From a virus (lineage: Duplodnaviria > Caudoviricetes), in IMG/VR virus record IMGVR_UViG_3300020477_000041, positions 1 to 50,557 of that record: DNA of 50,557 nt. One strand, 5' to 3'. The notes under the pieces are model-generated. The model was not told the DNA's origin. It ran no database searches and was given only the letters and a program-made list of their open reading frames with translations. Shown here piece by piece: positions 1-42,797 of this stretch. The first letter of the stretch is position 1. Each line of letters begins with the position of its first letter. Made by a program: the position numbers and the translations under genes.

Positions 1-339
1 GAAGTATCACATCTAGTCTATTACCCAACTAAAGACGGTAAATCTAAGGTTGTGTATGAAGTTAGTTGGCGGTGCAATGGAACGGAAGAAAAGGATGACG
101 AAACTTATTCGTCTTCCGCAGCAGGAAATAATATTATCACATACGATGCGGATGCTTCGTTTACTGCTTTTGACGATCTGACTGAAGAACAAGTTCTAGG
201 TTGGATTTGGAAAACTGACTCAGATGATGAAAATGATATGAGTAAAGTGGTTAAAGCTGATGTTGAAGCTAATGTGCAAGCATCAGTTGATGAACATATT
301 ACGCCAACTTCTGTTGTAGGGTTGCCTTCTGGATGGTAA
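1..339 (+). CDS. Tail-fibre-associated small protein, 5'-truncated (frame open from base 1)
   Basis: Frame 1 is open from position 1 (EVSHLVYYPTKDGKSKVVYEVSWRC...). The FTAFDDLTEEQVLGW segment resembles small proteins that follow marine podovirus tail fibres. Confidence 0.55.
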   Translation, partial: EVSHLVYYPTKDGKSKVVYEVSWRCNGTEEKDDETYSSSAAGNNIITYDADASFTAFDDLTEEQVLGWIWKTDSDDENDMSKVVKADVEANVQASVDEHITPTSVVGLPSGW

Positions 340-386
340 TGTGGTAATATAAATTATGTTTTGTGTTTTAACAAAGGAGTCTTTAC

Positions 387-626
387 ATGGCTGATACAAA
401 AGACAATATCATTAACATTAATGGTACTGAGTACGACACTGATTCGTTTAACAACGAACAGAAATATGTGATTGCTCAGATCAGAGATTTGCAAGCTAGA
501 TTTGAAGTTGAGAAATTTAAGCTTGATCAAACTCAAGTTGCTTTACAGTCTTTCACTTCTGCTCTTATTAAAAGTTTAGAAGAGAGCGAAGAAGAAAAAG
601 TTGAAGCTGAAAAAGTAGCTTCGTAA
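387..626 (+). CDS. Small coiled-coil protein (possible tail-fibre chaperone)
   Basis: SD AAGGAG upstream; INGTEY N-terminus followed by a heptad helix; lies after tail-fibre genes. Confidence 0.5.
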   Translation: MADTKDNIININGTEYDTDSFNNEQKYVIAQIRDLQARFEVEKFKLDQTQVALQSFTSALIKSLEESEEEKVEAEKVAS

Positions 627-3234: not shown

Positions 3235-3259
3235 AATAAAGAAAAACGGAGATTAGAAA

Positions 3260-3691: not shown

Positions 3692-3707
3692 ATATTGGAG
3701 AATATAA

Positions 3708-4223
3708 GTGATTAATCTTGAAGACGATCCTTTTAGATCAAACCCTATTCCCGGTCAATCTTTAACATCAGAACCGGGTAAGCTTCCTTATGAAAAACCT
3801 CCTATGTACGCAAATACAATGGAAGCTTTTCAATCTATAAAATCTTCTTTATATAGAAGTAGGGAATCTGCTGAAGAATTAGCTGAGATTATAAATTCAG
3901 GAATATCTTGTGAAACGCTTGCATCTTCAATCGTTATAAGTAGTTTTATGAAAGGAATGTTTAATCCTGATGTTGCTGAATTGATAAAGCCATTTGTAGC
4001 TCTTGAAATATATAAGATAGCTGAGAGAGTTGGTGTTACTAATATAATTTTATTTAATAAACCTTTAGAAGATAAAGTTTATGATAATAGAAATGTGTTA
4101 GATCAGTTTAAAATGTCAATAGGACATGAAAGCTCAATAGAGGATAAGGAAATTAACGCTCTTATAGAAAAATCTTTAAGTAAAGAACATACTGATGGTT
4201 TTATTAGTAAAGGAGAAGTGTAA
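3708..4223 (+). CDS. Hypothetical virion-associated protein
   Basis: PIPGQSLT..PG..PYEKPP N-terminal motif of the kind seen in marine podovirus structural modules; SD GGAG. Confidence 0.55.
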   Translation: MINLEDDPFRSNPIPGQSLTSEPGKLPYEKPPMYANTMEAFQSIKSSLYRSRESAEELAEIINSGISCETLASSIVISSFMKGMFNPDVAELIKPFVALEIYKIAERVGVTNIILFNKPLEDKVYDNRNVLDQFKMSIGHESSIEDKEINALIEKSLSKEHTDGFISKGEV

Positions 4224-7200: not shown

Positions 7201-7414
7201 AATTTTTAATCCATTAAAAAGTGAATTTTACCAGAGAGTTATTAACGGAGATATGAACACATTTGAACAATTATTAGAACATATGAAAACGATAGATTTT
7301 AGTAATGATAATGGTGATTCTGATATTTCTCGTAAAACGTTAAATATTGAAAAAGAATTTTTAATAAACCTTCTTGAATACACACAACGATATTTTACTA
7401 GAGGAGCTGAGTAA
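4223..7414 (+). CDS. Large putative ejection protein (1063 aa)
   Basis: TAATG coupling to upstream gene; size, AT-rich composition and position match core proteins; no catalytic motif recognised. Confidence 0.55.
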   Translation: MFGLSGPVSSGLITGFMQQGLRRDHMKAVAEAEAAAAAKKAEEERKLQKIKDDAADLRTLATTQATMQAARYRADASAHASHQKLQFEMIQSIPDLAEKGVFSLEAKDHFTRADDGTIIPITPWFKLYFNKKYPERSVSIFSQALKMQKDRKQEVNKWSNYPKSLQEHFLLQQSGKSESYYNHLVKKQKANRKLTPLEANYKAYVDETTKFNKGVKDNKQKKSILPFEYWFALNAKTTAGRTEKTRAKDTLNNYMKGSLPVSLIYVDYDTEKKIVHPSLIRTLAINDLLVGESVKELRNESRRHAKLFYNRQRQANQENTKVTGRMHITEIPGLHNLRTVIPNLPDSETVLQETYQGSKQLDFYSASDMLTRLQKLGLFGKPGDTEKKRIDNIKRSGTYQYILKLLNAMSKGVESVVDGQEITTYYNLNENLNKTLQVLTKIDSNLPKTHSRFFNQRNEVHYTDKATPQNGTVITKIAPGVLGTESSRTLNLSLHLEQKNPVFKRLSNVLKTEDNVGLSKEEVLEGYQYYFPTDQNPRVIDDEDTPYARSEKLVLENPFLTIISPYLSGFGNLLEHKSAMSTVQKRLKSIKYSKGTKDPKKIEFWKKRNKLKESQDDIFQLIDTTLTYVGSINDADIRDSSLDELISTLEENSWNVTTGIGSDLFQKVSDTLKGLVGVGDTYATEISSLRQQFSSKFLNNAKSVSNLVKTDIKFRDEAELIRTAREKERGGPNASEKVKRDADRRFALRSIILFNKVQLTYKLAGLVQGDQTGGRTISNQDFDTVWKHLWGRSDLSNLANLKALRTDINLRRKLGDAFDVVYEFEGEISGTLKRAANEVHHDQTKRWIKSRPEYKSQIDSYLNNNNNNNKDSLLKLNGLIGLGENDALKPMTIANGKIAGISYGPSVTSINNRMLESPKSELAVPNRFINSALLLSTLKDNPSNSGITPTSKQMRGSAYSLAITAGRIYGTPKILDPQFVLNDKVTRDNSIYPIFNPLKSEFYQRVINGDMNTFEQLLEHMKTIDFSNDNGDSDISRKTLNIEKEFLINLLEYTQRYFTRGAE

Positions 7415-7415
7415 T

Positions 7416-10400: not shown

Positions 10401-12341
10401 TTTGATCAAAAAGCTATAGATTCTATGTTAAAATTTTTAATTTCACGTAAGATTGATGAAACAGCTTTAGCTCAATCATTTATTCCTCAATCAATGCCTA
10501 TAGATACATTAATAAAACTTAAAAGGAAAAAAACAAATGAAGCTCATATAGTTTCAAATGTAGAAAAAATGGATCAAAATCAATACAATCAACTAGAACA
10601 ATTAAAAAAAGAAATAAACTTATTAGACAAAGCTATAACTGACTCTATTGAAGGTATTAAAGACCCAGAATTAGCAGGAACAGTAAAAGATGCTTTAGGT
10701 AAATTAAATAAAGCTAATGATTTTTACGCTAATAATGCCAATCATTTTTATGGTGGAAAAGCTACTGTTTTAGGTAGAGAAATTAATACTTTTAATTCTC
10801 CTTTACATAGAGCATGGCGTTCTCTTAGTCCTTCAGTTAAAAGTGATACTAATCCTGCTACATTTATAAAATTTTTCGTAAATTCTACAAATCCAGAATT
10901 AGCCAAACATCAATTTGATATGTTAGCTAGTATTCCTAAAAAAGTAGGTGATAATAGACCAGATGATGTTGTTAGTTATAATCCAGAAATAGTTAGCGAC
11001 ATGATAAAATCTTTAGGACGAATAGATGAAGCAACTGATATAAGCATGTTTACAAAATGGTTTGATGAAATAGTAGAAAATACTGAAGGTATAGATGATG
11101 TAAAAAAACATTATTCAAACTGGAAAAATTATAATAATGATAAATTTAAATTAGCTACAGATAATCCTGCTCGTATTATTGATAAGACCGATGAAGCAGA
11201 AGTAAGACTTACTTTAGATTATATAAATAAACTTGAAGAATCTTTTATAGAAATATATGATGTAGGTGGATTAGGACAATTAGGAAAAATTAGAAATGAA
11301 GATGAACTAGCAAAAGCAATTTTAGAAAAACATATTATACCATCACAAAGTGTTGAACAAGTAAAAGCAAAACTTCCTTCAGGATATGCTGAAAAACTTT
11401 TTACTGAAACAAATAGATCAGTTTCAAGAGAGCTTACTGATGCCGTTGAAAAAGCAGCACAGTTTGCATCTTCAGATTATAAAATATCACGATTAGACCT
11501 TCTTTTAATAACTTTACAAGAAGGAAGAGCTGCTAAAAGAATAAGTGAAGAAAAATATACAAAAACTATAGATTTTTTACAAAGAGCAGTAGCTACTAGA
11601 TTGTATAATAATGCTCTTAGAAAAACAACTACAAAAAGATTACAAGTTAAAGCTGATGAATTAAATCAACATAGACGAGACTATCTTAATAAAGACAAAG
11701 CAGCAGAGGATGGCTATGTTAGAAAGTATGAAGATACTGCTGATATGGAAAAATGGTTAAGAAAAACACGTAATTTTACTGATCAAGATTTTACAAATAG
11801 AGTAGATTTAAGCGATGCTTTTGATACAACATTTTATAGTTCTTTTTTAACAGAAAATAAACAAGCTTTAAATATGTTATTTGAAAGTAAACCTGAAAAT
11901 CTAAAATTTATAGAAGATATTTTTCAAGTTTCTTTAGCTCTTGATCCTGTTTCAGGTCAAGCTATGGTATCAGCATTAGCAGGAGGAAGATATACTGAAC
12001 AAATGGCTGCTGGTAGGTTATACAACGCAATGAAAGGAGTTGTGTCCTATAGATACCTTTTAATGGAAGCTGGTTTTATGAAAGCTGCTGCTATACAACA
12101 AGGTATGGTTGCTGATATTTTAGCTGATCCTAATTTAGCAGAATCAGTTCATAAAATGTTTCATCTTGGTATTTTTGAAGATAAAACTTTTGACATAATT
12201 TGGATACATATTTTAGGTAGATTAGGTAGAATGGGTTTAACTCACACTGTATTAGATTATGATGAAGTTAAAGAAGAATTTGAAAAACAATCTGAACAAG
12301 CAGCAGAATTTAATGACATTGTGCGACTTACCAGTATATAA
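7416..12341 (+). CDS. Very large putative ejection protein (~1640 aa)
   Basis: ORF 7374..12341; likely start ATG7416 after GAGGAG; G/A-rich hydrophobic segments in the first third; position of a T7 gp16-like gene. Confidence 0.55.
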   Translation: MVEKVDPVLGLRDSSQIQRWEEAIRNPKGFIASQAPFDSSESVPEVKEEEEKPNVPPSMVKVTETRTGERRVIPPRALSPETPPEERRGWSQPTYYSEGVSPQQALFTPISTGDYDLFGNAQDRDVQGKQVRPDVKLLDVPYQPLQAGALGVKMGFEFPFDIATKWIWQTLYTGVGAYEELMNAPLNLFKYYTDTPLSPRESKSLEKIANRWDQYNKETIPMLIESYGKKGFLSPIKLLSDVSNVPVHKRHASFTPLSFGLSGALPFGGVWATSHKAKKFLDGVFRGAAVYSQLRKPVVASGLGLRTGDDIFPFGAASSEARLNMLTAARLAFEEARQFRPKLPGVEQITTYSQLAQNNKFVINPDLEKALNARSAINLILQKRKYIPGYTYEQARKMSTRNYNNAWLGLGMGAGHAIASQFTDNEMTQMLFGMMAGIPIGKGKIRTDKEDGKYGTSLGRHGVKARKANIALRTLRGASTISGQLGLLALSKAVPVKFWQTLKGDPEEFLKILTRKDHNPVAKTLIAMNFGFSLPQIAKTTRESMKTTRYAVRKHRILEGEVKKAEVEIENINKSIRDTGKAGTDVHKKLISQANAKLETAQKEFKHFKNEKIKQKVLKLNKEGEIEGNPLHLVDDLLMAPSGKMEAVTAMVNAMKTTSKDFEETLGLTLKSLSDISKHTGLDMDGISLTIGQAANAIVFSQYIESSLNAVRVSLMDNGFRLDKTLLGLLDNEIAAHQENLAKSVEALGKSLDTITLSGKDIPKEVNDFIQTLNGIKKYYGENLQTIFESNRKRMMGISDETMKAQLYRSSKKYEEESQDWFNSSTLDDIRIINDSIFDNNFKTFKKDADKLYGDATYALNNFKDVNGNKYAFSVSFNPVSVFRKSNLLDNDQRQIFKSLFEGQVLKEYGSINIKPVNLAQEMRLNAILDGKLENATNVPHFRRVKQKILDPYVDELVEIERKKIEGAGGQFNEKKYREETFDFFPNKDSSGKGIFDQKAIDSMLKFLISRKIDETALAQSFIPQSMPIDTLIKLKRKKTNEAHIVSNVEKMDQNQYNQLEQLKKEINLLDKAITDSIEGIKDPELAGTVKDALGKLNKANDFYANNANHFYGGKATVLGREINTFNSPLHRAWRSLSPSVKSDTNPATFIKFFVNSTNPELAKHQFDMLASIPKKVGDNRPDDVVSYNPEIVSDMIKSLGRIDEATDISMFTKWFDEIVENTEGIDDVKKHYSNWKNYNNDKFKLATDNPARIIDKTDEAEVRLTLDYINKLEESFIEIYDVGGLGQLGKIRNEDELAKAILEKHIIPSQSVEQVKAKLPSGYAEKLFTETNRSVSRELTDAVEKAAQFASSDYKISRLDLLLITLQEGRAAKRISEEKYTKTIDFLQRAVATRLYNNALRKTTTKRLQVKADELNQHRRDYLNKDKAAEDGYVRKYEDTADMEKWLRKTRNFTDQDFTNRVDLSDAFDTTFYSSFLTENKQALNMLFESKPENLKFIEDIFQVSLALDPVSGQAMVSALAGGRYTEQMAAGRLYNAMKGVVSYRYLLMEAGFMKAAAIQQGMVADILADPNLAESVHKMFHLGIFEDKTFDIIWIHILGRLGRMGLTHTVLDYDEVKEEFEKQSEQAAEFNDIVRLTSI

Positions 12342-14150: not shown

Positions 14151-14828
14151 TTATTTTCCTTTCTCAGAAAATATTTTTTTAAGCAAACGCCTAGACTTAG
14201 TATTTTTTGCGTATTTTAATATAGCATCACTAACTGCTTTCATTCTCATTTTTATGTGCAGTGGAGTTGTAGAATCTTTGTATTCTGAATTATTTAGAAA
14301 CTCTTTAGCTGATTTTTCGTACAACCCTTTATTGAACAATTCAGTAGCTTTAAGATTAAAACCTAAATCTCCACGATAGGCAGCTTGAACAAGTTCCTTT
14401 TTAAGATACAAAGGTAACACATCATAAGATGGTATTACGTTTTTGGTTATAAATATGAAATTATCTATAGTGTATTTAAAAGTTTTATTTCTATACTTTC
14501 CTGTTTGACCAACTCCTACTGTAGGAGTACCTTTTGTATCTTGATAAGGTGAAGAAAACCCTTCCAACCTAACGACATGTTTTTCTATTTCGTTAAGTTT
14601 TCTGTTTTCTATTTTTTCTACGTGTTTAATTGCTTCATCTCCGTACAACAAAACAGTATCTTTCTTTAGTTGTTTTACTTCTTTTTCAAGTTTGTTCATT
14701 CTATGAAAACTTACAACATCTAACATAGATTTAGCTACTACAAGATGTACACAACCATTAAACATGATACAAACTATTACACAAAATAATATTTTACTAA
14801 AACATGTTCTTTTGTTCATATCTTTCAC
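14151..14828 (-). CDS. Lysozyme (T4-lysozyme/GH24-like) with N-terminal lipoprotein-like signal
   Basis: E-x7-D-x5-T in EGFSSPYQDTKGTPTVGVG; SAKEFLNNSEY; N-terminal hydrophobic stretch ending FNGC. Confidence 0.75.
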   Translation of the reverse strand: MKDMNKRTCFSKILFCVIVCIMFNGCVHLVVAKSMLDVVSFHRMNKLEKEVKQLKKDTVLLYGDEAIKHVEKIENRKLNEIEKHVVRLEGFSSPYQDTKGTPTVGVGQTGKYRNKTFKYTIDNFIFITKNVIPSYDVLPLYLKKELVQAAYRGDLGFNLKATELFNKGLYEKSAKEFLNNSEYKDSTTPLHIKMRMKAVSDAILKYAKNTKSRRLLKKIFSEKGK

Positions 14829-19690: not shown

Positions 19691-19767
19691 GGTTCCGTAG
19701 CTCAACAGGATAGAGCAATAGACTTCTAATCTATAGGTTGTAGGTTCAAGTCCTACCGGGACCGCCA
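19691..19767 (+). tRNA. tRNA-Arg (anticodon TCT)
   Basis: Acceptor GGTTCCG/CGGGACC, anticodon stem ATAGA/TCTAT with loop CTTCTAA, T-arm GGTTCAAGTCC, encoded CCA. Confidence 0.95.
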
Positions 19768-28563: not shown

Positions 28564-29721
28564 ATGTCTCACGAAATAGAAACAATGGCTTTCGTAGGTG
28601 AAACACCGTGGCACGGTTTGGGCCGTTCTATAGATTATGTCGATGCTGGTGATATCGAAGGCTTTCAGATTGAAGCCGGTTTGGATTGGGAGGTGCGGCT
28701 AGATAACAACAGGAAAGCAGATAACACGCCCATCGAAGGTTCGTTCTATATAGAGCGTATCAGCGACGGTAGCGTTCTAGGTAAATCAGTGACAAACCTG
28801 TACAAGCCTGTGCAAAATGCTGCGCTTTTTGATTTCTTTCGCCCCTACGTCGATAGCGGCAAGCTTCACCTCCACACTGCCGGTTCGTTGTTTGGTGGTC
28901 GTAAGGTTTGGGTTATGGTGTCGCCAATGCGTGGCTTTACGCTTGATGGCAACGACGACGTAAGCAGTAACGCTATATTTACGTTGGACCATACCGGACT
29001 GCGTGCCAACAGTATGATGCTGTCGCCTGTACGCGTTGTGTGTAACAATACGTGGACGCTGGCAAAGGAACTCGCTAGCGATGAAGTCAAGCACAACCAT
29101 AAAGTCGTGTTTGATCGTGAAGTTATGGATCGCGCTCTCAATTATTTCAACGCCGCGTTTGATGATTTTGAAAAAGAAGCAATCGCGATGGCCCGCCGTG
29201 TCTTAACTGGTGAGGAAGAAATAGAGTTTTTCCAACGTGTTTTTGGCGGAAAAGAAAAAGAGGTTGACGGTAAAATAATAAGATCACGAGCAGTTCAAAA
29301 AGCTCTTGCAATGTCGCGAGGTAAGGAGCTTCCAAAAACCAACACTAAAACCGGTCCAACTAAAGCAGAAACACAAAGCAAGCTTGATGCTTTAACGCGA
29401 TTAATGGAAGAGGCCGCACAATCTGGCAAGGTGTTAGATACCGATCAACTTGCGAGTATCACCGGCAAAGAAGATGACGATAACACCGACAGCGGTCGCG
29501 TGATCAATCCCGGCCACGATTTGGAAAGTACTCGGCGTGACGATGGCGTTACAGTCTGGGGAGCCTTCCAGACTGTGACAAACATAGTCGATCACAATCC
29601 GGTTAAGGCTTATAAATCAGACGATCACCGTGCAGATAGAGCATTATACGGCGCTCCTGCCGGTCAACGTGATGCTAAATCAATCGCGCTTCAGGCTGCG
29701 CGGGAATTGGTAGCGGCATAG
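28564..29721 (+). CDS. DUF932/DUF945-family protein
   Basis: MAFVGETPWHGLG, AGLDWEV, YKPVQN, TAGSLFGGRKVW, PVRVVCNNT, TVWGAFQTVT...DH. Confidence 0.85.
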   Translation: MSHEIETMAFVGETPWHGLGRSIDYVDAGDIEGFQIEAGLDWEVRLDNNRKADNTPIEGSFYIERISDGSVLGKSVTNLYKPVQNAALFDFFRPYVDSGKLHLHTAGSLFGGRKVWVMVSPMRGFTLDGNDDVSSNAIFTLDHTGLRANSMMLSPVRVVCNNTWTLAKELASDEVKHNHKVVFDREVMDRALNYFNAAFDDFEKEAIAMARRVLTGEEEIEFFQRVFGGKEKEVDGKIIRSRAVQKALAMSRGKELPKTNTKTGPTKAETQSKLDALTRLMEEAAQSGKVLDTDQLASITGKEDDDNTDSGRVINPGHDLESTRRDDGVTVWGAFQTVTNIVDHNPVKAYKSDDHRADRALYGAPAGQRDAKSIALQAARELVAA

Positions 29722-31349: not shown

Positions 31350-31383
31350 AACTTCCCCTTACTACAGTCTCCCTCCCAAACTT

Positions 31384-31413
31384 AGCCCGGCATGTTCGCC
31401 GGGTTCTTTTTTT
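31384..31413 (+). terminator. Intrinsic terminator ending the early module
   Basis: AGCCCGGC-atgttc-GCCGGGTT followed by C and T7. Confidence 0.85.
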
Positions 31414-31892
31414 GCCTGATAGGCTGTGCTGGCTGGTGATATATCCGCAAGGTGCTGGTTTGATTGCATAAGGCTTTATTGGTGGTGTGTTCTTGGTAGT
31501 GCGCCACCCCGCCCCAGACAGTGCTTGTTTTCAAACTTCATAATTTTGTTGTCAGTATAAACAAATCATGCCTGCGTGCATCTGCGTGCGTATAAGAGCT
31601 GTATTGTGTGGAAAGCTTGGCATTCTCGCTATATAGACTATCAAGATTTATCGCCGATGACTTTATGTCAATTTTGTTGAACAAAATGAGAACAAACTAG
31701 GCTGGGGAGGGATGGGCCACTGGGGGGGCTCCGTATACTTATATACATAACCAAGAATTTTATTATAATTTCAAAGAGATACATGTAAAAATGCTTATAA
31801 ACTACTATCAAGCCTCTACTCAGAGCTAATTAGTACTAATTAGTATACCTTGTATGATATGTATATACTACCTCCGCGCAGGAGTACCTCCT

Positions 31893-32145: not shown

Positions 32146-32174
32146 TTGACAAAGTGCTAAATCATTGTTATAAT
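32146..32174 (+). promoter_or_regulatory. Perfect rightward sigma70 promoter heading the morphogenesis module
   Basis: TTGACA-aagtgctaaatcattgt-TATAAT (17 bp) with AT-rich upstream element. Confidence 0.85.
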
Positions 32175-33076: not shown

Positions 33077-33517
33077 GTGTCTGGTAAAGCAATAGCTGGT
33101 ACACCATTTCGTACTGATCCAAAGCGTAAGCTTACAGAGAAGCAAGCAAGCTTCTTAGACGCTTTGTTTGAAAATGGTGGAAAGATAAGCGAAGCCATGC
33201 GTACAGCAGGATATAACACATCCAGATCAAAGCTTATGCAGTCTATGCGAGAAGAGATAGCAGCACGTACAAAGGACTATCTGGCTGTAAATGGCGTTAA
33301 AGCAGCAACAAGAATAGTAGAAGGCTTGGACGCTGATGGCACTACACCGCTGAACCAGATGGACATGCGTATGAAGGCTGCTGAGTCTATTTTAGACCGT
33401 ATTGGTGTGTCAAAGAAACAAACACAGGAGATTACAGGACAGGTCGTACATGGTGTTGTGTTGCTTCCTGCTAAAAATGAACTTAAAGACGTTACCTTAG
33501 AGGGGGAGACAATATAA
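33077..33517 (+). CDS. terS: Terminase small subunit
   Basis: LTEKQASFL..LFENGG.ISEAMRTAGY HTH; KAAESILDRIG; VVLLPAK; upstream of terL. Confidence 0.75.
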   Translation: MSGKAIAGTPFRTDPKRKLTEKQASFLDALFENGGKISEAMRTAGYNTSRSKLMQSMREEIAARTKDYLAVNGVKAATRIVEGLDADGTTPLNQMDMRMKAAESILDRIGVSKKQTQEITGQVVHGVVLLPAKNELKDVTLEGETI

Positions 33518-33816
33518 TGCCTAGTAATATGACAGTAGCAGAAGCTTACGCGGTTAAACAAGAAATGTTGGATGCTAATAATGGTAAACCACCAACGAAT
33601 AGTCCAGAATATGACGCTGCTATGAAAATACTTAACGAAGCAAAAGAAGATCAAATTAAACACGCTAAAGATTTTGTAGCTACTGCTGATCCTAAAATGA
33701 AAAAAGGCGGTAAAGTAAAAAAGTACATGGGTGGCGGTAAAGTCTACACAACCCACAACAAACGCTACGCACACGGTGGCAAAGTATCAGGTAGAAAGGC
33801 TAAATACAATGGATGA
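33517..33816 (+). CDS. Small protein with three GGKV motifs
   Basis: MKKGGKV, YMGGGKV, YAHGGKV. Confidence 0.6.
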   Translation: MPSNMTVAEAYAVKQEMLDANNGKPPTNSPEYDAAMKILNEAKEDQIKHAKDFVATADPKMKKGGKVKKYMGGGKVYTTHNKRYAHGGKVSGRKAKYNG

Positions 33817-34057
33817 AGAAGAAGAATTAGACAAAAAAATAAAATTTTTCAGAAAACAAAAAGCCCGCTCTAAAAAAATGTCGTTGGAACCAACGATACC
33901 GGGAGATACGTTGCTGACACCCTACCAATATGATGGATTGATTCGAGAGTTATTAAACAAGAAAAATAAAAAGAAAAAGAAAAATAAAGGTTTTCAAGGA
34001 ATGAAAGGCGGCGGTAAGGTCTACACGAACAACACTCGTCGCGCTAACTACAAATAG
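33809..34057 (+). CDS. Small basic protein with GGKV motif
   Basis: Likely start ATG33809; C-terminus MKGGGKVYTNNTRRANYK resembles the preceding gene. Confidence 0.55.
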   Translation: MDEEEELDKKIKFFRKQKARSKKMSLEPTIPGDTLLTPYQYDGLIRELLNKKNKKKKKNKGFQGMKGGGKVYTNNTRRANYK

Positions 34058-34063
34058 TACATC

Positions 34064-35713
34064 ATGGCTCAAAGAGGAAGACCAAAGCTTAAACCCGGCG
34101 AAAAGGGCAAATATCAACAATCAAGCGTTCAAAAGAAGCGAGTTGAAGCAAGGCGTAATATTAAAAGACAAAAGGAAAAAATAGAACGCGCTGAAGCAAG
34201 CCTTAAAAAACTTACTAAAAAGAAAGAAAATATAAAAACTGCTGATAAAGTATCAAAACAAGGTGGAGTTATAGACGATGATTTCATTAACAATTTACCC
34301 GCTTCTGTACGACAAAACCTTGAGGACGACACAGAACTCGTATTCAGACCTAACGAAGGTCCACAAACCGACTTTCTTGCAGCGCCGGAAAAAGAAGTTC
34401 TTTACGGAGGTGCTGCGGGCGGTGGCAAATCATACGCGATGCTTGTTGATCTCCTGCGCTATGCAAATAATCCTAATCACAAAGCACTTCTACTGCGAAG
34501 AACACTTGCCGAACTCACGGAACTAATCGAACAATCAAGAAAACTTTATCCTAAAGCATTTAACGGAGCAGTATTCAGAGAATCAAAGTCTACGTGGATT
34601 TTCCCAAGCGGTGCAACAGCAATGTTTAGCTACGTAGACAAAGACCACGACGTAACACGATATCAAGGACAAGCGTTCACTTGGATTGGTGTTGACGAAC
34701 TAGGACACTATCCTACACCGTATGTGTGGACGTATCTACGAAGTCGCCTAAGAACCACAGACCCAACTATAGAGACTTATATGAGGGCATCAGCTAACCC
34801 CGGTGGTCAAGGTGGATGGTGGATTAAAAAGATGTTTATTGATCCTGTACCGCCAAACACACCGTTCTGGGCGATTGATCCTGAAACAGGAAGAACTTTA
34901 AGAAATCCACGAACTCAAAATCCGTTGTTTCAAAGAAAGTTTATTCCTGCAAGATTAACGGACAACCCTTATCTAGCGGAGTCAGGCGAATATGAATCAA
35001 TGCTTCTCAGTCTTCCTGAAGTTGAAAGACGTAGGCTACTTGAAGGAGATTGGGATGTTGCGGAAGGGGCAGCATTTTATGAGTTCGATAGATCAGTACA
35101 TGTTGTTGAACCATTTGAAGTTCCCTTTAGTTGGCCCCGTATACGAGCAATGGATTACGGTTACAGTAGCCCTAGTTGTGTCTTATGGGGCGCGGTAGAT
35201 TGGGACGGGACAATATGGGTGTATAGAGAATTGTACGAAAAAGGACATACAGGAGAAAGCCTAGCAAGTCTTATTCTTGCTTTAGAATACGACGATCCTC
35301 CTATGACGCAAAATGTTCTTGACGGGTCTTGTTGGTCAAATCACGGCACAGGACCAAGTATTGCTGAAACAATGATCCGCAACGGTGCAAGATTTATACC
35401 AGCGGATAGAAATCGCATGGCCGGAAAAATCGAACTTCACAGAAGACTTGATGAAGACAAGCCACTAAGTTCTAAAGGTGGTAACGGTTTGCGTATCTTT
35501 AGCACTTGTACAAATCTCATACGCACTCTTCCCACTTTACCTTTGTCTCGCACTAATTCAGAGGACGTAGACACTAAAGCAGAGGATCATGCGTATGATG
35601 CCCTACGATACATGTGCATGACGCGCCAGACCGGCTATGCAACCAGTTCGATGTTCAACTCTATTAAACAACAACAATCTTACGAACCCTCTAACCAAGT
35701 GTTTGGATATTAA
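34064..35713 (+). CDS. terL: Terminase large subunit
   Basis: Walker A GGAAGGGKS, Walker B IGVDE, ASANPGG, RAMDYG, EDHAYDALRY. Confidence 0.95.
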   Translation: MAQRGRPKLKPGEKGKYQQSSVQKKRVEARRNIKRQKEKIERAEASLKKLTKKKENIKTADKVSKQGGVIDDDFINNLPASVRQNLEDDTELVFRPNEGPQTDFLAAPEKEVLYGGAAGGGKSYAMLVDLLRYANNPNHKALLLRRTLAELTELIEQSRKLYPKAFNGAVFRESKSTWIFPSGATAMFSYVDKDHDVTRYQGQAFTWIGVDELGHYPTPYVWTYLRSRLRTTDPTIETYMRASANPGGQGGWWIKKMFIDPVPPNTPFWAIDPETGRTLRNPRTQNPLFQRKFIPARLTDNPYLAESGEYESMLLSLPEVERRRLLEGDWDVAEGAAFYEFDRSVHVVEPFEVPFSWPRIRAMDYGYSSPSCVLWGAVDWDGTIWVYRELYEKGHTGESLASLILALEYDDPPMTQNVLDGSCWSNHGTGPSIAETMIRNGARFIPADRNRMAGKIELHRRLDEDKPLSSKGGNGLRIFSTCTNLIRTLPTLPLSRTNSEDVDTKAEDHAYDALRYMCMTRQTGYATSSMFNSIKQQQSYEPSNQVFGY

Positions 35714-35715
35714 AT

Positions 35716-35937
35716 ATGGCTAAGAAAAAAACTACAACAGATCACATTCCTTTTATCTTTCATTCTTTTGGTACAAACTTGAGTAAGTTTAACTTCAATC
35801 CTTATGATACGGGTGAAGAAAGAGCTTATCCGTACAAAGAAGTGGAGTACACAAAAAAGAAGACTGATTCTGCTGTTCCTAGTGCTGAACTGGACCTAGC
35901 AAGAATGGAAGCACTTTATAAGAAGTTTGATTGCTGA
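35716..35937 (+). CDS. Hypothetical protein
   Basis: 73-aa ORF packed between terL and the next gene. Confidence 0.5.
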   Translation: MAKKKTTTDHIPFIFHSFGTNLSKFNFNPYDTGEERAYPYKEVEYTKKKTDSAVPSAELDLARMEALYKKFDC

Positions 35938-35939
35938 TC

Positions 35940-38588
35940 ATGGCTAAAAAAGATAAAGGTTTTATAGCTACTCGTAGAGTTCCAAAAGCTGATGCTGAAA
36001 AGTTAATTGGTTTTTTTCAATCATTTGGAGATGAACTTCCAAGTGTAAAAGATTTACAAACAAAAATAGAAAAAGAAACTATTACTGTAAGAGAAGCAAT
36101 TTTATTAGCTTTTTATAATAAAGGAATATCTGCTGATAGTGTTGATGATATTTTAATTACAAATTATGGTCGTGTTAAAGATGGAAATAAATTTAGGTCA
36201 AGAACAGATGCAGAAAAAAAATTAATAGAAAATTCATTGAAAAAGAACTTAGAAAAATATATAAACATTTCAAATAGCGATAAATCTAAAACAATAAGTA
36301 GTTGGATGAAAGGAATAATAAATTTAGAAACGTATTACGATAAAACATCGCAAAGTCTAGATTCTCCTTTAAAAACTGCATTTAATACTAATTTTATGGT
36401 GAACGATCTTTTTCAAGGTGTAACTTCTAGACCAGCAGCGGCAAGTATAATAGGAGATGTAGTCGATGCTGTCTCTTCAAATGTTGTAGGATGGCAATCT
36501 GAACCTCTTGTAGGAAACAGAAAACTTCCAAGTTGGCTTCCTGAATTTAAAACACTTAAAGTAGATTTATTAACAAAAGGAATAACTGCTCAAAAAAGAG
36601 ATTTAATTGGTGCTGAAGGAGCTGCTCCATCTATAGCTAAATCAGTTTCTCCCTCTAAACATTTTGAGACTCTTATAACTTCTTTACAAACTATTCCAGA
36701 TCAAGATATAAGAAATTTTATGTACATGTCTCATTTTATTCCTACAAGACTAGAAAAGCTATTTAATTTAACTTATGGTGCAGGAAAATCAATTCCTTAC
36801 TACGATCCTGAAAGACAAATGATTGTTTTTCAACCAGATTTTAGTAAATCAGGTACACTAGAAGAAAGTGGTATGAAAAAGTATCATAATTTTCAAATAT
36901 CTGATGCTATGGCTGCTTTTATTGAAAACATTAAAAATAGTAAAGGTTTACAAAATGGACAACGGTTATTTCCTGATGATGATGAAGGTAGTTTTTCTAA
37001 TAAAATTTCCTCTCAATTAGCTTCGCAAGGAGATGAAGGATTTACAAAAAGAACTCAATCACGAGACTACGATTCTTGGGGTAGAAGAGCTATTAAATAT
37101 GCAAAAGATATGAGAGCAGTAACTTCAACTTTTTATCTTGACACTTTTCCTGATATGTCAAATGCTTTAAAACAACTTATGGGACATGTTCTTAATCCAC
37201 AAAAAACTTCTGAAGGAAGAACAAATATACAGTCAGCTTATGGTGGAGTAATCGGTGATCCTAATTATATGGATGATGCTGCTAGAATGATGGAAAAACA
37301 AGAAGAACTGTTTATAGAACAATGGAGAGAAATGTATCGTGATGAAATATTTGAATATGAAAAAACAACAGGAAGAAAATTAGATTTACGTACAGGTCAT
37401 CTTCCTTTTCTTGTTAATGTTGATTTTAGTTCAGATGGTATATATAATAAAGATTTCAGTCTTGATTTAAGTAGATTACCAACTAATGTTGAAGGCTCTA
37501 TGGCTGGTTTAGATGTACTAAAAACAAACCTAAAAGATAATCGATTTATACAAAGACTTCAAAAAGAACTAGAGATTAGTTTTGAAGATGCTAAAAGTAC
37601 TAAACAAAATTTAGAACGTATCTCTCCGCACAGAGGCGGTATTTCTCCAGAAATTATTTACGATGAAATATTTAGTATGAATCCTGTAGATGAATTTGAT
37701 AGTGCTACAGATGCACGGAAATTCTATTTAACTGCATTTAATATGCTTGAAGATGATATTAAAGAAGAAAATAAAGCAAAACAACAAAAAGCACAAAAAC
37801 TACAACCTACGCCTGAAGTTAAAGAAACAAAAGTAGAGACACAACCAACGGATGAACTTGTAGAAGAACCTAAATCTAAAACATCTGAATGGAAAAATCC
37901 AGCAGATGTTTTGGATACATCAGAAAATCCTGACTATAAACCAGATCAGGGGATGCCCGACAGAATTTCAGATTGGTTGTACAGCCGACTTAGAGATGGA
38001 AACAAACTTAAAAATGTTATTGGTCCTATTATTGCAGGAACAGCAGCAGGGTTAGCATCTTTTCATCCTGTAACACGGCCATTAGCTGGTCCTCTTCTAA
38101 AAGAAGCTGGCTTGGAAACTGGTTTACAGACTTTTGATCCTACTACAATAGGGGAAAGACCAGAAGGAGGATTTGCACCGGATTTTGGTCTTCAATTACC
38201 GCAATCTTTAGATATGAATGAAATGGAAAACTATCTAAGAGCTGCTCAACGATTTGAGGTAAGCGGTGATCCTAATTTAGAAACTGCTGCTGATAGAATG
38301 TATGATCAATATGCTCAGAATTTTCGAGATCAAGCATCTATTGAAGCAAGAAACGATTTAGCTACTCATAAATATACAGAAGAAGACTTCACTACGTCTG
38401 CACTTGATAGATATAACTACGCTCAAAGTTTACCTAAACCAAGTGAAATGCCAGAAGTTAATCGTCAAAATTTACAAAAAGATTTTGGAAGAGAACTATT
38501 TCAAAAAGATACTAAGGGTGAAACACCTTTAGGAACATTAGAACAGTACGAAGAAGAAATGAGACAATTATTTGATTTACCCACTTAG
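35940..38588 (+). CDS. Large protein with tyrosine-recombinase/telomere-resolvase/TopIB-type catalytic domain
   Basis: PTRLEKLFNL (R), YAKDMRAV (K-x-x-R), LMGH (H), NIQSAY (Y) in canonical order and spacing. Confidence 0.65.
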   Translation: MAKKDKGFIATRRVPKADAEKLIGFFQSFGDELPSVKDLQTKIEKETITVREAILLAFYNKGISADSVDDILITNYGRVKDGNKFRSRTDAEKKLIENSLKKNLEKYINISNSDKSKTISSWMKGIINLETYYDKTSQSLDSPLKTAFNTNFMVNDLFQGVTSRPAAASIIGDVVDAVSSNVVGWQSEPLVGNRKLPSWLPEFKTLKVDLLTKGITAQKRDLIGAEGAAPSIAKSVSPSKHFETLITSLQTIPDQDIRNFMYMSHFIPTRLEKLFNLTYGAGKSIPYYDPERQMIVFQPDFSKSGTLEESGMKKYHNFQISDAMAAFIENIKNSKGLQNGQRLFPDDDEGSFSNKISSQLASQGDEGFTKRTQSRDYDSWGRRAIKYAKDMRAVTSTFYLDTFPDMSNALKQLMGHVLNPQKTSEGRTNIQSAYGGVIGDPNYMDDAARMMEKQEELFIEQWREMYRDEIFEYEKTTGRKLDLRTGHLPFLVNVDFSSDGIYNKDFSLDLSRLPTNVEGSMAGLDVLKTNLKDNRFIQRLQKELEISFEDAKSTKQNLERISPHRGGISPEIIYDEIFSMNPVDEFDSATDARKFYLTAFNMLEDDIKEENKAKQQKAQKLQPTPEVKETKVETQPTDELVEEPKSKTSEWKNPADVLDTSENPDYKPDQGMPDRISDWLYSRLRDGNKLKNVIGPIIAGTAAGLASFHPVTRPLAGPLLKEAGLETGLQTFDPTTIGERPEGGFAPDFGLQLPQSLDMNEMENYLRAAQRFEVSGDPNLETAADRMYDQYAQNFRDQASIEARNDLATHKYTEEDFTTSALDRYNYAQSLPKPSEMPEVNRQNLQKDFGRELFQKDTKGETPLGTLEQYEEEMRQLFDLPT

Positions 38589-38607: not shown

Positions 38608-38838
38608 ATGCCATACGGAAACAAACAGATGTACGGTAAAGATTACATTATGAATCAGATGTCCAAACAGGGCGAGATGAATGATGCAAACGAAAGTGCG
38701 CTTTACCGTGAAAAGGCTGAGTTTGATATGAAAATCAAACACGGTGTTCTTATTGAGGACTTTGGTAAAAAGGGTGGCGGCAAGAACGTAGATTCTAAAG
38801 TTCTTGGCAGTCTTGCTAGTAAATCTCCTCATAGCTAG
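38608..38838 (+). CDS. Small hypothetical protein upstream of portal
   Basis: ATG38608 after AAGGA; MPYGNKQMYGKDYIMNQM... Confidence 0.6.
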   Translation: MPYGNKQMYGKDYIMNQMSKQGEMNDANESALYREKAEFDMKIKHGVLIEDFGKKGGGKNVDSKVLGSLASKSPHS

Positions 38839-38863: not shown

Positions 38864-40933
38864 ATGGATGAATACGAAGAATATAAGCTAGTAGGCTTAG
38901 TAAAATCAAGGTTTATGGATGCTGAAACAGGTCGTAGACCTGATGAAGAACGCTGGCTTAAAGCTTATAAAAATTATCGCGGTATCTACGATTCTACCAC
39001 ACAGTACCGTGATAACGAGCGTAGTAAAGTCTTTATAAAGATTACAAAGACAAAGGTACTTGCTGCTTACGGACAGATTGTAGATATTTTATTTTCACAA
39101 AACAAGTTTCCTATTACTGTGGAGTCTACACCTGTTCCTGAAGGTATTGCTGAGTTCGCTCATCTTTCGCAGCAACCACAACAACCAGAACAAGAAGAAA
39201 GCCCTTATGGTTTTCCCGGTGACGGAAAAGAACTTCCACCGGGTGCTACAGAAGCTACTCTTCTTGCGGGTCTAAGTAATAAGTACGAAGGTGCTAATTT
39301 AGAAGAAGGCGTAGCTAAAGCTCCAAATGCACCTCAAATAGCTCCAGCAAGAGAATCCGCACGTTATATGGAAAAGTGCATTCAAGATCAGCTTTTGGAT
39401 ACTAACGCAGTAACTATTATGAGGCACTCTTTGTTTGAGTGTTCTTTGTTAGGCACTGGTGTTGTAAAAGGACCGTTTAATTATAGCAAGACAGTACACA
39501 ACTGGGCAGTTCCAGAAGAAGGTAGCCCTGAAGGCGAGAAACAGTACGAACCTTACGAAAAGACTGTTCCTCGTTTAAGCTCTGTTAGCTGTTGGGATTT
39601 TTATCCTGATCCTTCTGCTACCTCTATTAGTGATTGTGAATACGTTATTGAAAGACACAGATTTAACAGGGAGCAATTGCGTGATCTTCTTAATCGTCCT
39701 TTATTCGATGAAGACGCTATTAAACGAGTTCTTGATGAAGGTCCAAACTATCAAGAACGCTATTTTGAAAGTACTTTGTACAATAATGAAAAGGATACTA
39801 ATAATGAGAAAAATCGTTATGAAGTATTGGAATACTGGGGTATCATGGATACGGCACTTGCGCGAGAAGCTGGTCTTGAAATATCGGAAGATTCGGGACG
39901 ATCTGTTCAGGTAAACGTCTGGGTTTGTGGTGAAGAAGTTCTTAGAATTGTTTCTAATCCGTTTCTTCCTACTAGACTACCCTACTACTCATTTCCGTTT
40001 GAACTCAACCCTTATCAGATTTTTGGTGTAGGTGTTGCAGAAAATATGGAAGATAGCCAGCTTCTTATGAACGGTCACGTAAGAATGGCTATTGACAATC
40101 TTGCTTTAGCTGGCAATCTAGTTTTTGACATTGATGAAACACAACTTGTACCGGGACAATCTTATGATGTATTTCCCGGTAAAGTTTTTAGAAGGCAATC
40201 TGGTGTAACAGGAACAGCTATCAACGGTATCAAGTTTCCTAATACTGCTGGAGAGAATATTCAGATGTACGACAAAGCAAGACAACTTGCTGACGAACAA
40301 ACTGGTATTCCAAGTATCATGCACGGGCAGACAGGTGTTACAGGAACAGGAAGAACTGCCGCTGGTTTAAGTATGCTTATGTCCAGTGCAGGATTAAGTA
40401 TTAAGACTGTTATCAAGAATATTGATGATTTTCTTTTAAAGCCTCTTGGAGAATCTTACTTTCAATGGAACATGCAGTTTAATTCAAACATGCCTGAAAT
40501 ACACGGTGATCTTGAAATCAAACCACGAGGTACAAGCGCAGTAGTTCAAAAGGAAGTACGTAGTCAGCGTCTTACTACACTTCTTCAAACTATTTCCAAT
40601 CCAATGCTTGCTCCTTTTATCAAGATTCCAAACCTTATAAAAGAACTTGCTATTAGTCAAGATATTGATCCTGATCTGCTTGTAAACGACGTAAATGACG
40701 CAGCTATTTTCGCAGATATTTTGAGAGGTATAAATGCACAACCGACAGGCCAAGAACCTTCTCCCGCTGGTCAGCAACCCCCAGCTATGGGAGCCGCTGG
40801 AGGAGTACCTCAAACAGTTGGCCCAAATGATGCAGCGGCAACTGGTGGTGGCGGAATCGGAGTTGGAGATGCGCCGATTGCAGGGGAAGCTGGCTTTGCT
40901 GGAAACATTGGTGAACCTCAAGGTATCGGCTGA
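38864..40933 (+). CDS. Portal protein
   Basis: RWLKAYKNYRG, KITKTKVLAAY, WDFYPDP, FGVGVAENM, RTAAGLSML; follows terL. Confidence 0.85.
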   Translation: MDEYEEYKLVGLVKSRFMDAETGRRPDEERWLKAYKNYRGIYDSTTQYRDNERSKVFIKITKTKVLAAYGQIVDILFSQNKFPITVESTPVPEGIAEFAHLSQQPQQPEQEESPYGFPGDGKELPPGATEATLLAGLSNKYEGANLEEGVAKAPNAPQIAPARESARYMEKCIQDQLLDTNAVTIMRHSLFECSLLGTGVVKGPFNYSKTVHNWAVPEEGSPEGEKQYEPYEKTVPRLSSVSCWDFYPDPSATSISDCEYVIERHRFNREQLRDLLNRPLFDEDAIKRVLDEGPNYQERYFESTLYNNEKDTNNEKNRYEVLEYWGIMDTALAREAGLEISEDSGRSVQVNVWVCGEEVLRIVSNPFLPTRLPYYSFPFELNPYQIFGVGVAENMEDSQLLMNGHVRMAIDNLALAGNLVFDIDETQLVPGQSYDVFPGKVFRRQSGVTGTAINGIKFPNTAGENIQMYDKARQLADEQTGIPSIMHGQTGVTGTGRTAAGLSMLMSSAGLSIKTVIKNIDDFLLKPLGESYFQWNMQFNSNMPEIHGDLEIKPRGTSAVVQKEVRSQRLTTLLQTISNPMLAPFIKIPNLIKELAISQDIDPDLLVNDVNDAAIFADILRGINAQPTGQEPSPAGQQPPAMGAAGGVPQTVGPNDAAATGGGGIGVGDAPIAGEAGFAGNIGEPQGIG

Positions 40934-40964: not shown

Positions 40965-42797
40965 ATGGCGTATGCAGATGAATATCAAGGCTTTGTACCA
41001 GTTGTAGGAGGTTTTTCTGATCCTTCTATTACTTCTTCTAATAGGTCAAGTGGTTTTATTCCTGTTGTAGGAGGGTTTAGTCAACCTCAATATCAATCGC
41101 CTCAATATGATTTTTCTAGTTCAGATAGTTTTATTCCAAAAAAATCAAACTACTATCCAAGCTATGATTTTTCTGCATTTTCGTCACAAGAACCTGAAGA
41201 TACTTCTGAAGTTATTTCGCCTGTTCCTACTACTCCGATTGTTTCACTAGATGATGTCTCAGATGATGGTTCGGATGATGATGGTGATGATACAGATACA
41301 GAAGGTCAAGATACGAATACAGGAGCGGAAAATACTACTGGAGCAATATCTAGTGTTGCTGATGCGCTAGGAATATCCAGTATTACTGATACATTAGGAT
41401 TCACTGAACCAGATGTTAATACTTATACAGAACCAGATATATTCGGTTCTAATCCTTTTAGTGTAGAAGCTGCTTTCACGGGAGCAGCACAAAACGCTGT
41501 TCTAGGTTTCTTAGGTGTACCTGAACCTGTATCTACAGCTATTGGACTTGCTGTAGGGGCAGTTGGTGTTGCAAATCATGCTCAAGCACTTAATAACGCT
41601 ATAGAACTAGAAGCTGCTATGTGGGGGCAACCACCGGGAAGAACAATAGATTTTTTTAGTGCTATTCCGTCTTATTTAGGACTTGCACCAGCGCCAATTA
41701 CTGAAGAGGAGGCTGACACGGCTCTCGCGGCAAAAGGAGCATATTTTGCTGAAGGACCATTATTTGGGGAACCTCATGCTGCTGGAGTTCCTAATCAAAA
41801 AACCCAACTTGAAATTGAACTAGCACTATATGAAGCGGAAGAAGAAGCGGCAGAAGAAGCAGAAGCATCGGGTCCAGATAGTGAAGGTCACGGACCTGAT
41901 GATGATATTGAACCCGGCACATTTGGAGCTATTTCAGAAGTCGGCGTAAGTATTGCGGAAGCAATATCACAGGCAGCAGAAGCATCAGCAGCAGAAGAAG
42001 CAGAAGCAGCAGAAGCAGCAGAAGCAGCAGAAGCAGCAGCAGCCGGTTTTGATGTAGACGAAGAGGATATAGCAGCAGAAGAGATTTCTGAAGCAACTTC
42101 GGAAGAAGCAGCAGAAGCAGCAGCAGCAGAAGCAGACGCAGAAGCAGCAGCAGATGTAGCAGAAGCAGAAGCAGAAGCAGAAGCTATGTCCGATCCTGAT
42201 GATGATGATGATGGCGATGACGAGGGAGGTGATGATGGCGATGATGATGGTGGTGGTCCTTGTTGGGTTGCTGGAACACAAATCTTAATGAAGGACGGTT
42301 CTTGTAAAAATATTGAGAATTTAAAAATAGGCGATATGGTTATGTCCTTTCCAGAAAATTCTAAGATTAGACGTTGGAACACTTCACTAGAAGCTAAACC
42401 TATTATTAATCTTTTAGTATCTAAAGCTAATATATGGCATTTAAATGATTCTATGGTTTCTGAAAATGAATGGATGGTAAAATCAGATGGAACAGCTAGT
42501 CTTGTACAGTGGTTAAATGTTGGTGACGAACTTATGGATCAAGATGGAAATAAAGTAAAAGTTTATAGAAATGAACCTGCTGAAGGAAAACTTTCAAGAC
42601 AAGTTGTTTATAACTTTGAATCAGAAAATAATTACTCTTACATAGCAAATAATATGAGAACATTAAAAGGTAAAGCAGTAAGAATGGCTGAATCTAAAAT
42701 GAATAGTTTTAGCGAAGGTTATTTTTCTGATGAAGGCAGCAGTATGAAGCAAGGGTGGAGTATGCAAGACGAGTACAGAAGAAAATTCGGTAGTTAA
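40965..42797 (+). CDS. Acidic low-complexity protein with C-terminal Hint (intein-like) domain
   Basis: GGGP|CWVAGTQILMKDGSCKNIENLKIGDMV (block A) and VYNFESENNYSYIANN (block F). Confidence 0.8.
   Translation: MAYADEYQGFVPVVGGFSDPSITSSNRSSGFIPVVGGFSQPQYQSPQYDFSSSDSFIPKKSNYYPSYDFSAFSSQEPEDTSEVISPVPTTPIVSLDDVSDDGSDDDGDDTDTEGQDTNTGAENTTGAISSVADALGISSITDTLGFTEPDVNTYTEPDIFGSNPFSVEAAFTGAAQNAVLGFLGVPEPVSTAIGLAVGAVGVANHAQALNNAIELEAAMWGQPPGRTIDFFSAIPSYLGLAPAPITEEEADTALAAKGAYFAEGPLFGEPHAAGVPNQKTQLEIELALYEAEEEAAEEAEASGPDSEGHGPDDDIEPGTFGAISEVGVSIAEAISQAAEASAAEEAEAAEAAEAAEAAAAGFDVDEEDIAAEEISEATSEEAAEAAAAEADAEAAADVAEAEAEAEAMSDPDDDDDGDDEGGDDGDDDGGGPCWVAGTQILMKDGSCKNIENLKIGDMVMSFPENSKIRRWNTSLEAKPIINLLVSKANIWHLNDSMVSENEWMVKSDGTASLVQWLNVGDELMDQDGNKVKVYRNEPAEGKLSRQVVYNFESENNYSYIANNMRTLKGKAVRMAESKMNSFSEGYFSDEGSSMKQGWSMQDEYRRKFGS

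Follow-up and report, generated by a model that had tools for sequence, protein, structure and literature searches.

Phage record IMGVR_UViG_3300020477_000041, which we analysed over its full length of 50,557 bases (the window), carries between its large terminase and portal genes a long gene, here called X (35940..38588, + strand), whose product is predicted to join a tyrosine-recombinase fold to an orphan C-terminal half. Judged by its predicted structure, X is a new family of the tyrosine-recombinase superfamily, undetectable by sequence and detectable by structure. A full tyrosine-recombinase catalytic set is hidden here from sequence-based annotation, and it sits in an unexpected place, a packaging-head operon; the architecture and genomic context of X are unprecedented for the superfamily. 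As to function, we give an even chance to X being an accessory, late-made enzyme that breaks and rejoins DNA, carried as a fast-evolving cassette, and neither a classical lysogeny integrase nor a hairpin-forming telomere resolvase. The protein is 882 aa long from its ATG and 885 aa from a TTG at 35931, and residue numbers are counted from that TTG throughout. The 885-aa frame (35931..38588) had been singled out by a first-pass annotation made from the letters of the sequence, and it is indeed present on the + strand.

Comparison of predicted structures places X among the tyrosine recombinases

The catalytic domain, as delimited by predicted structure, spans residues 226-460 (36606..37310, + strand), and on these models residues ~226-460 very probably adopt the tyrosine-recombinase fold. 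The full-length AlphaFold model has a mean predicted local distance difference test (pLDDT) score of 50, with residues 241-410 at about 60-77, and a domain model of residues 130-520, built on 8 sequences, has a mean of 63, with the catalytic blocks at ~70-90. We compared both with 48,161 representative chains using VIA-align; ranks 1-23 for the full-length model and ranks 1-24 for the domain model were all occupied by tyrosine recombinases, type IB topoisomerases (TopIB) or recombinase-fold regulators. Matches to the domain model include the archaeal Xer 4a8e (Z 11.9, root-mean-square deviation (rmsd) 3.4, 161 residues aligned), Brujita Int 5vfz (Z 11.8), a Staphylococcal Int, 3nkh (Z 11.2), the lambda Int core 1ae9 (Z 10.4, rmsd 3.0, 144 aligned), SSV1 Int 3vcf (Z 9.9), Flp (Z 8.3), Leishmania TopIB 2b9s (Z 8.0), Cre 1kbu (Z 7.9), SroF 9rd5 (Z 7.5), variola TopIB 2h7f (Z 7.3), MrpR 8a0a (Z 6.8) and the protelomerases TelA 4dwp, ResT 8vs5 and TelK 2v6e (Z 5.7, 5.2 and 5.0). 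By group, the Xer and Int proteins (Z 9.3-11.9) thus stand above TopIB (6.3-8.0), and TopIB above the protelomerases (5.0-5.7). The top 10 rows returned by Foldseek for the X model contain the same families, with weak E values of 0.03-0.25, and in the ESM Atlas the features of residues 225-470 match Tyr-recombinase and PF00589/PF16795 clusters, with values of 0.96-0.97. The recombinase fold that the first-pass annotation had proposed is supported by the VIA-align comparisons of both models over residues ~226-460.

Simple tyrosine recombinases (XerA 4a8e/5hxy, Brujita Int 5vfz, lambda Int 1ae9, HP1 and P2 Int) share the fold of X at Z 9.5-11.9 and rmsd 3.0-3.5 over 134-163 residues, and they present their catalytic residues in the same order: R, a beta-hairpin K, x-x-R, H and Y, with 11 residues between H and Y in one of the two clades of X. 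Unlike these enzymes, to which it has no detectable sequence similarity, X carries K, T, L or A rather than H at the first position of box II, is 880-950 aa long with a 425-aa orphan C-terminal half, and lies in a late operon, with neither an attachment (att) site nor lysogeny partners found.

A conserved catalytic set with a variable box II lysine

The candidate catalytic residues are encoded on the + strand at R273 (36747..36749; the box I Arg, in FIPTR), K316 (36876..36878; candidate beta-hairpin Lys), K392-D-M-R395 (37104..37115; box II), H419 (37185..37187; the second His, in MGH) and Y437 (37239..37241; candidate nucleophile, in xYGG). Five of these positions and their motifs (R273, K392, R395, H419 and Y437) had been read correctly from the translation by the first-pass annotation, numbered from 35931. 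Our alignment holds 8 X sequences, 6 of them full-length, in two clades with 24-31% mutual identity. R273, K316 and R395 are each invariant in 8/8 aligned sequences, and H419 and Y437 in 6/6 of those that cover them. Across the 6 full-length homologues, which reach down to 24-26% identity, 40/235 columns of the catalytic region are invariant, and R273, K316, R395, H419 and Y437 are among them. K392 behaves differently: it is K in the 4 sequences of clade 1 and T, L, A and A in the 4 of clade 2. The spacing from H to Y also differs, at 18 residues in clade 1 and 11 in clade 2. The catalytic set first proposed for X thus stands for R273, R395, H419 and Y437 and gives way at K392. The first box II position varies across the tyrosine-recombinase superfamily, and X has the superfamily's R, K, (H/K)-x-x-R, H/W and Y in order and conserved, with their three-dimensional placement judged by alignment ranges only.

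The predicted order of secondary-structure elements agrees with this assignment. Two helices are followed by R273 at a helix start, a three-strand sheet, further helices, K392/R395 at a helix start, G-H419 and Y437, which is the canonical tyrosine-recombinase layout. K316 comes immediately before the third strand of the sheet (E319-322), where the beta-hairpin Lys is expected. The range aligned with 1ae9 (model 114..320 against chain 180..355) would put R273 and Y437 within ~2 residues of R212 and Y342 of lambda Int. We consider X probably active as a catalyst. In such an enzyme, attack by Y437 on a DNA phosphodiester would yield a 3'-phosphotyrosyl intermediate, R273, K316, R395 and H419 would stabilise the transition state, and the cleaved strand would then be religated or exchanged.

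The K-x-x-R of box II had been taken at first pass as a cue for telomere resolvases and TopIB. It fails in that role, since K392 is replaced in clade 2, which means that K-x-x-R is not a family trait. TopIB enzymes (2h7f, 2b9s and bacterial 3m4a) do share the superfamily fold with X at Z 7.1-8.0, and X of clade 1 has their Lys at the first box II position. Against membership, TopIB ranks below the recombinases, the box II Lys of X is not conserved, and X has no match to Pfam Topoisom_I.

A role as a telomere resolvase making hairpin ends is suggested by clade 1, as its KDMRA, followed by GH and then Y, locally resembles the KDSRA, GH and Y of N15 TelN, whose motifs we confirmed in the N15 record, and as TelN, like X, has an acidic C-terminal tail. 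Resolvases of this kind (TelN, TelK, TelA and ResT) share the superfamily fold with X. However, TelA, ResT and TelK fall below 24 other chains in the structure comparison, K392 is not conserved, and a profile alignment of X with N15 TelN by hhalign was null (E 0.42 on an irrelevant segment), leaving no sequence relationship. The genomic setting also differs. N15 has a 56-bp inverted repeat 165 bp from telN, whereas X has no intergenic DNA beside it and the window contains no telRL-like palindrome, the best candidates being 31 nt at 71% and 17 nt at 88%. We therefore regard a telomere resolvase as extremely improbable, and the kinship to resolvases and TopIB first suggested for X is not supported, Xer and Int proteins ranking higher.

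Position of X in the phage genome

X lies between terL (34064..35713, + strand; PF03237, phrog_979) and the portal gene (38864..40933, + strand; PF23899 SU10_portal, 5e-30), outside any lysogeny module, which confirms the placement given by the first-pass annotation. There is no flanking intergenic DNA on either side. A 73-aa backbone open reading frame (ORF; 35716..35937, + strand) stops 3 nt before the ATG at 35940, which is likely the start of X, and a small backbone ORF (38609..38838, + strand, from ATG 38609; listed from TTG 38572) occupies the gap between X and the portal gene. No terminator-like sites were found between terL and portal in a pattern scan. Upstream of X, the only 12/12 promoter match on the + strand is a consensus TTGACA-17-TATAAT with a TG extension at 32146..32174, preceded by a terminator-like hairpin at 31384-31405; by this pattern match only, it is a candidate start of the late operon containing X. 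Because no terminator intervenes, X has no promoter of its own and its start nearly abuts the upstream stop, the simplest view is that X is read together with the packaging and head genes.

The source phage is an HMO-2011-type marine podophage; its portal shares 57% identity with the Pelagibacter phage HTVC033P protein and 49% with its counterpart in Puniceispirillum phage HMO-2011. The record is rated 96% complete, about 4% of the genome being absent from it. The window encodes a family A DNA polymerase, primase-helicase, ribonucleotide reductase, thymidylate synthase, an endonuclease VII-like protein, a Cas4-like exonuclease, coat protein and tail proteins. According to PMC9038755, HMO-2011-type phages rank among the most abundant marine viruses, lysogeny genes are not identifiable in subgroups IV-X, and those phages that do have int carry it upstream of the replication module. 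Most subgroups are thought to be strictly lytic because lysogeny genes are not recognisable in them.

This background bears on the possibility that X is an atypical lysogeny integrase whose alleles differ in attachment-site specificity and whose attP may sit inside the ORF, as it does in the SSV1 and Mx8 integrases. X is structurally closest to Int and Xer proteins, SSV1 integrase among them, an archaeal phage-integrase cluster appears among its ESM Atlas matches, and integrase modules are classic exchangeable cassettes. The record also holds no second integrase: a scan of its six-frame translation (the whole 50.5 kb, E<=10) gave zero matches to PF00589, in a procedure that was positive in 14/14 control genomes. 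Yet the surroundings are not those of a classical lysogeny integrase, in that we found no attP by the gene, no repressor or excisionase in the ORFs scanned and, with two peptide patterns scanned, no integrated host copies. Among 25 window ORFs scanned, with the small ORFs partly covered, there were no integrase, repressor or excisionase families, in keeping with the absence of a repressor and excisionase near X remarked on at first pass. The position of X departs from that described for int in PMC9038755, and X occurs in a phage type whose subgroups IV-X lack identifiable lysogeny genes. Its coupling to a late operon, its size (880-950 aa) and an omega 4-6-fold that of its flanks also speak against an integrase, as do its absence from prokaryotic genomes (within the limits of the search given below) and from the closest terL relatives in metagenome-assembled genome (MAG) contigs. 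We find this reading fairly improbable. If it were true, the lifestyle of the X-bearing lineage would need reassessment.

Distribution of X

Few homologues of X exist in the collections searched. A word-indexed search of 5.8 billion clusters recovered 3 X proteins, profile searching with HMMER yielded 7 matches, 5 of them fragments, among 1.84 billion representatives, and X is encoded at 6 metagenome loci. We found no match in 50,697 phage records by tblastn, none in IMG/VR by pattern scan, and none in 185,579 prokaryote species represented by one genome each, the last scanned with two peptide patterns only and thus with limited sensitivity. The order terL (549 aa)-X-portal is kept at two other loci, L006 (X of 874 aa) and L008 (X of 948 aa), and at L007 X is followed by a small ORF and then portal. 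Cultured relatives have no X: HMO-2011 and CRP-207 have nothing between terL and portal, HTVC115P and HTVC033P have 3-4 small ORFs there, and in two MAG contigs, whose terL is 65% and 49% identical, the X position is taken up by small ORFs alone. Given so few homologues and these relatives without X, we take X to be specific to one narrow phage lineage. In those portions of the literature on HMO-2011-type phages and pelagiphages that were at hand, with supplementary tables outside their scope, we found no description of the gene.

A role in housekeeping may also be envisaged, in which X would resolve or cyclise genome multimers, or relieve torsional stress, during replication and packaging in the manner of Cre, Xer or TopIB. 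P1 Cre is a tyrosine recombinase proposed to cyclise or resolve phage DNA rather than to integrate it. X adjoins terL and has all catalytic residues, and a similar role, to cyclise or resolve phage DNA and not to integrate it, has been proposed for gp143, the tyrosine recombinase of the lytic phage phiCbK (PMC3556154). Both Cre and gp143 differ from X, however, in being small (208-343 aa), in lying in replication or early regions and in not being hypervariable. Close relatives manage without X, an endonuclease VII-like enzyme is already among the phage's products, hypervariability is not usual in housekeeping enzymes, and no site was found, all of which makes this role improbable in our view.

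X evolves as a rapidly diverging cassette

X is the fastest-evolving gene of its neighbourhood. Its identity across loci is 86, 54, 27 and 25%, against 92-96% for terL, 93-96% for portal and 97-99% for coat. The omega of X is 0.68-0.72 by NG86 and 0.27-0.33 by maximum likelihood (ML) and YN00, which allow for skewed codon usage, and terL and portal are at 0.05-0.11; X is thus 4-6 times above its flanks. Synonymous divergence (dS) in X is lower than in the flanks when compared with locus L005 (ML 0.18 vs 0.37-0.39) and far above them when compared with L006 (1.15 vs 0.26-0.32), a pattern consistent with transfer of alleles between backbones. Homology with L008 at the nucleotide level is lost at 35955 and regained at 38545, that is, at the ORF ends. 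With L006 it breaks within the ORF (37511-37964), and the last 200 codons are at backbone level (91% nt, 80% aa). Since nucleotide homology breaks at or inside the ORF ends, we describe X as an exchangeable cassette with a modular C-terminus.

The base composition of X is extreme. Its GC content at third codon positions (GC3) is 0.126, where terL, portal and coat have 0.26-0.40 and the ORF after portal 0.165. Four consecutive ORFs of 801, 172, 1063 and 1655 aa at 829-12341 are similarly AT-rich, with GC3 of 0.11-0.16, and most window genes lie at 0.25-0.45, which bears out the AT-rich style noted for X at first pass. These four ORFs have no Pfam family and no informative PHROG, and are presumed to encode internal virion or tail proteins. 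Each of the 5 full-length loci keeps the 2.6-kb frame of X open at a GC3 of ~0.13, which argues for selection on the protein.

These data also bear on whether X might be a catalytically dead, recombinase-fold protein that binds DNA or has a structural role, or a selfish cassette useless to the phage. MrpR and SroF are non-catalytic regulators with an X-like fold, used in phages for something other than integration, and they are among the structural matches (8a0a and 9rd5); the raised omega, the cassette-like boundaries and the acidic to neutral charge of the clade-1 domain would also suit a protein of this kind. Unlike MrpR and SroF, X keeps a full catalytic set, with no change in R, K, R, H or Y down to 25% identity, and its frame is open in every locus. 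We judge the two possibilities together to be decidedly unlikely, and each of them, the inactive DNA binder and the selfish cassette, very unlikely when taken singly.

Regions outside the catalytic domain and possible virion delivery

The N-terminal region (residues 1-225; 35931..36605, + strand) is predicted to be helical, with pLDDT of 40-77 in the model. It has weak structural matches (Brujita Int 5vfz aligned over 116..463, and the integrase N-domain 2kj5 with Z 5.4 over 44..238), and residues 1-225 may possibly form a core-binding domain. A C-terminal extension of ~425 aa, put at ~450 aa at first pass, follows the catalytic region. It is acidic (net about -27 for residues 461-885 of the window protein), partly helical and partly of low confidence, and comprises a helical middle region with a low-complexity acidic linker, the most variable part of the protein (residues 461-680; 37311..37970, + strand), and a C-terminal module (residues 681-885; 37971..38585, + strand). 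The module is 80% identical to its counterpart in L006, where the rest of X is at 43-55%. Neither a profile search nor an ESM Atlas search with residues 461-885 found relatives of the C-terminal half outside its own family.

It is conceivable, as the first-pass annotation had proposed, that X is loaded into the head and ejected with the genome, and that it cyclises, relaxes or caps the incoming DNA before phage gene expression. Poxvirus TopIB, which is carried in virions, shows that an enzyme of this fold can be packaged; in the portions of the literature available to us, we found no packaged tyrosine recombinase or TopIB in a phage. X neighbours portal within a late operon, GC3 as extreme as its own occurs otherwise mainly in the post-portal ORF and the large distal late ORFs (829-12341), and X evolves fast, as host-interface proteins do. 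The long orphan C-terminal half could serve loading, and in L006 its 80% identical module is co-inherited with the portal side. Against such delivery, X-bearing phages are uncultured and the cultured relatives do without X, the distal ORFs are only presumed to encode internal virion proteins, the clade-2 C-terminus is 29% identical despite portal identities of 93-94%, and X has no conserved segment of transmembrane grade. On this evidence virion delivery is plausible, though somewhat unlikely. The more specific scheme, in which X would be loaded through its orphan C-terminal module and on entry would cyclise the genome, or cap or relax its ends, by a covalent 3'-phosphotyrosyl link, we think unlikely. 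If it were true, X would shield the DNA from host exonucleases and defences, the ensuing arms race would drive allele turnover, and X would be, to our knowledge and in the part of the literature covered, the first virion-delivered enzyme of the superfamily in a phage.

Several candidate features of X were considered and set aside. The best 19-residue hydropathy in the C-terminal half is 0.8-1.67 and is not conserved, which gives no transmembrane segment. The C-terminal LFDLPT, considered as a functional tail, is absent in L007, and is probably explained by nucleotide conservation at backbone level from 38545 on, just upstream of the next ORF. An N-terminal KGFIA motif that the first-pass annotation had seen in both X and the 1655-aa protein is indeed present in both, at residues 44-48 of the open frame in the latter. 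X and this ORF share 12 5-mers, KGFIA being one, and 500 shuffles gave 8.0 +/- 2.8, with 12% reaching 12. Because this count is ordinary and the motif is absent from divergent X homologues, we regard KGFIA as a chance match and not a shared targeting motif.

Weighing a late-made DNA-processing role

Given its operon position and its evolution as a cassette on near-identical backbones, X is most likely an accessory enzyme, made late to process DNA and lying in a zone of genetic conflict, the reading to which we have given an even chance. A number of results weigh against it. The late timing of X rests on gene order and pattern scans, no recombination-site candidate for X was found, and the raised omega fits relaxed constraint as well as conflict. 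The clade-1 catalytic domain has a net charge of -3 to 0 and is not basic, which is unusual for a DNA enzyme. The models were built on 6-8 sequences only, and the segments bearing K316 and Y437 have pLDDT <50 in them. Sequence searches gave X no match in Pfam (whole protein at E<=1, 7 domain sequences at E<=10), and it does not reach the gathering score of PF00589; PHROGs, NCBIfam and two PDB profile searches gave no relevant match. Using hhalign, X went unrecognised in global and local comparison with a 20-sequence lambda-Int family profile, forced alignments not being colinear with the catalytic domain. Lambda Int alone aligned at box II only, with K392/R395/H419 against 308/311/333, at an E of 0.32 that is not significant. 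If X is nonetheless a late or virion-borne DNA-processing enzyme, it would add a new means by which a phage handles or protects its genome; either way, X is a compact target for biochemistry.

The 31.4-32.2 kb region and other observations

The region at 31.4-32.2 kb, on which the first-pass annotation had suggested that X might act, holds a terminator, two divergent consensus promoters and short repeats at chance level, and repeat, promoter and Rfam scans yielded no evidence tying it to X. Its identity across loci falls alongside that of X (88, 73 and ~70%), in a comparison of four loci that are too few for co-variation. The divergent promoters, both perfect TTGACA-17-TATAAT matches, form a 61-nt inverted repeat (31893-31953/32114-32174; 79% complementary) around 160 nt, which is seen in L008 too. 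They lie in a 0.8-kb non-coding stretch between the early/middle and late genes, and the leftward one faces no obvious ORF. An Rfam suhB/mmgR match at 31354-31419, over the terminator-like hairpin, scored 22.7 bits (E 0.088), below the gathering score of 41, and is probably due to chance.

Among the neighbours of X, the terS-terL gap (33517-34057) contains two small, overlapping, basic ORFs of 99 and 108 aa that both end in a GGGKVYT-like sequence. An ~80-nt unit of this pair matches two places in L004 (6054-6631) and L005, hinting at a repeated module whose copy number varies. Directly after portal, a 610-aa ORF (40965-42797) ends in a Hint/intein-like segment (PF05203 at 3.6e-7 over residues 433-461, under the gathering score; weak PT-HINT over 447-562). 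The first ~430 aa of this protein, acidic and rich in Ala and Glu, are only 34% identical in L006, and its C-terminus is 95% identical in L008; the product could be a self-cleaving head or ejection protein.

Farther from X, a complete tRNA-Arg with anticodon TCT lies inside the replication module (19691-19767). A DUF932 protein (28564-29721; PF06067, 9.5e-32) has the top GC of the window, 0.48, and is 61-75% identical across related loci. The sole sizeable minus-strand ORF (14151-14828; 225 aa; phrog_37474, function unknown) sits in a stretch at 13-15 kb with reversed GC and AT skew, possibly an early-region boundary.

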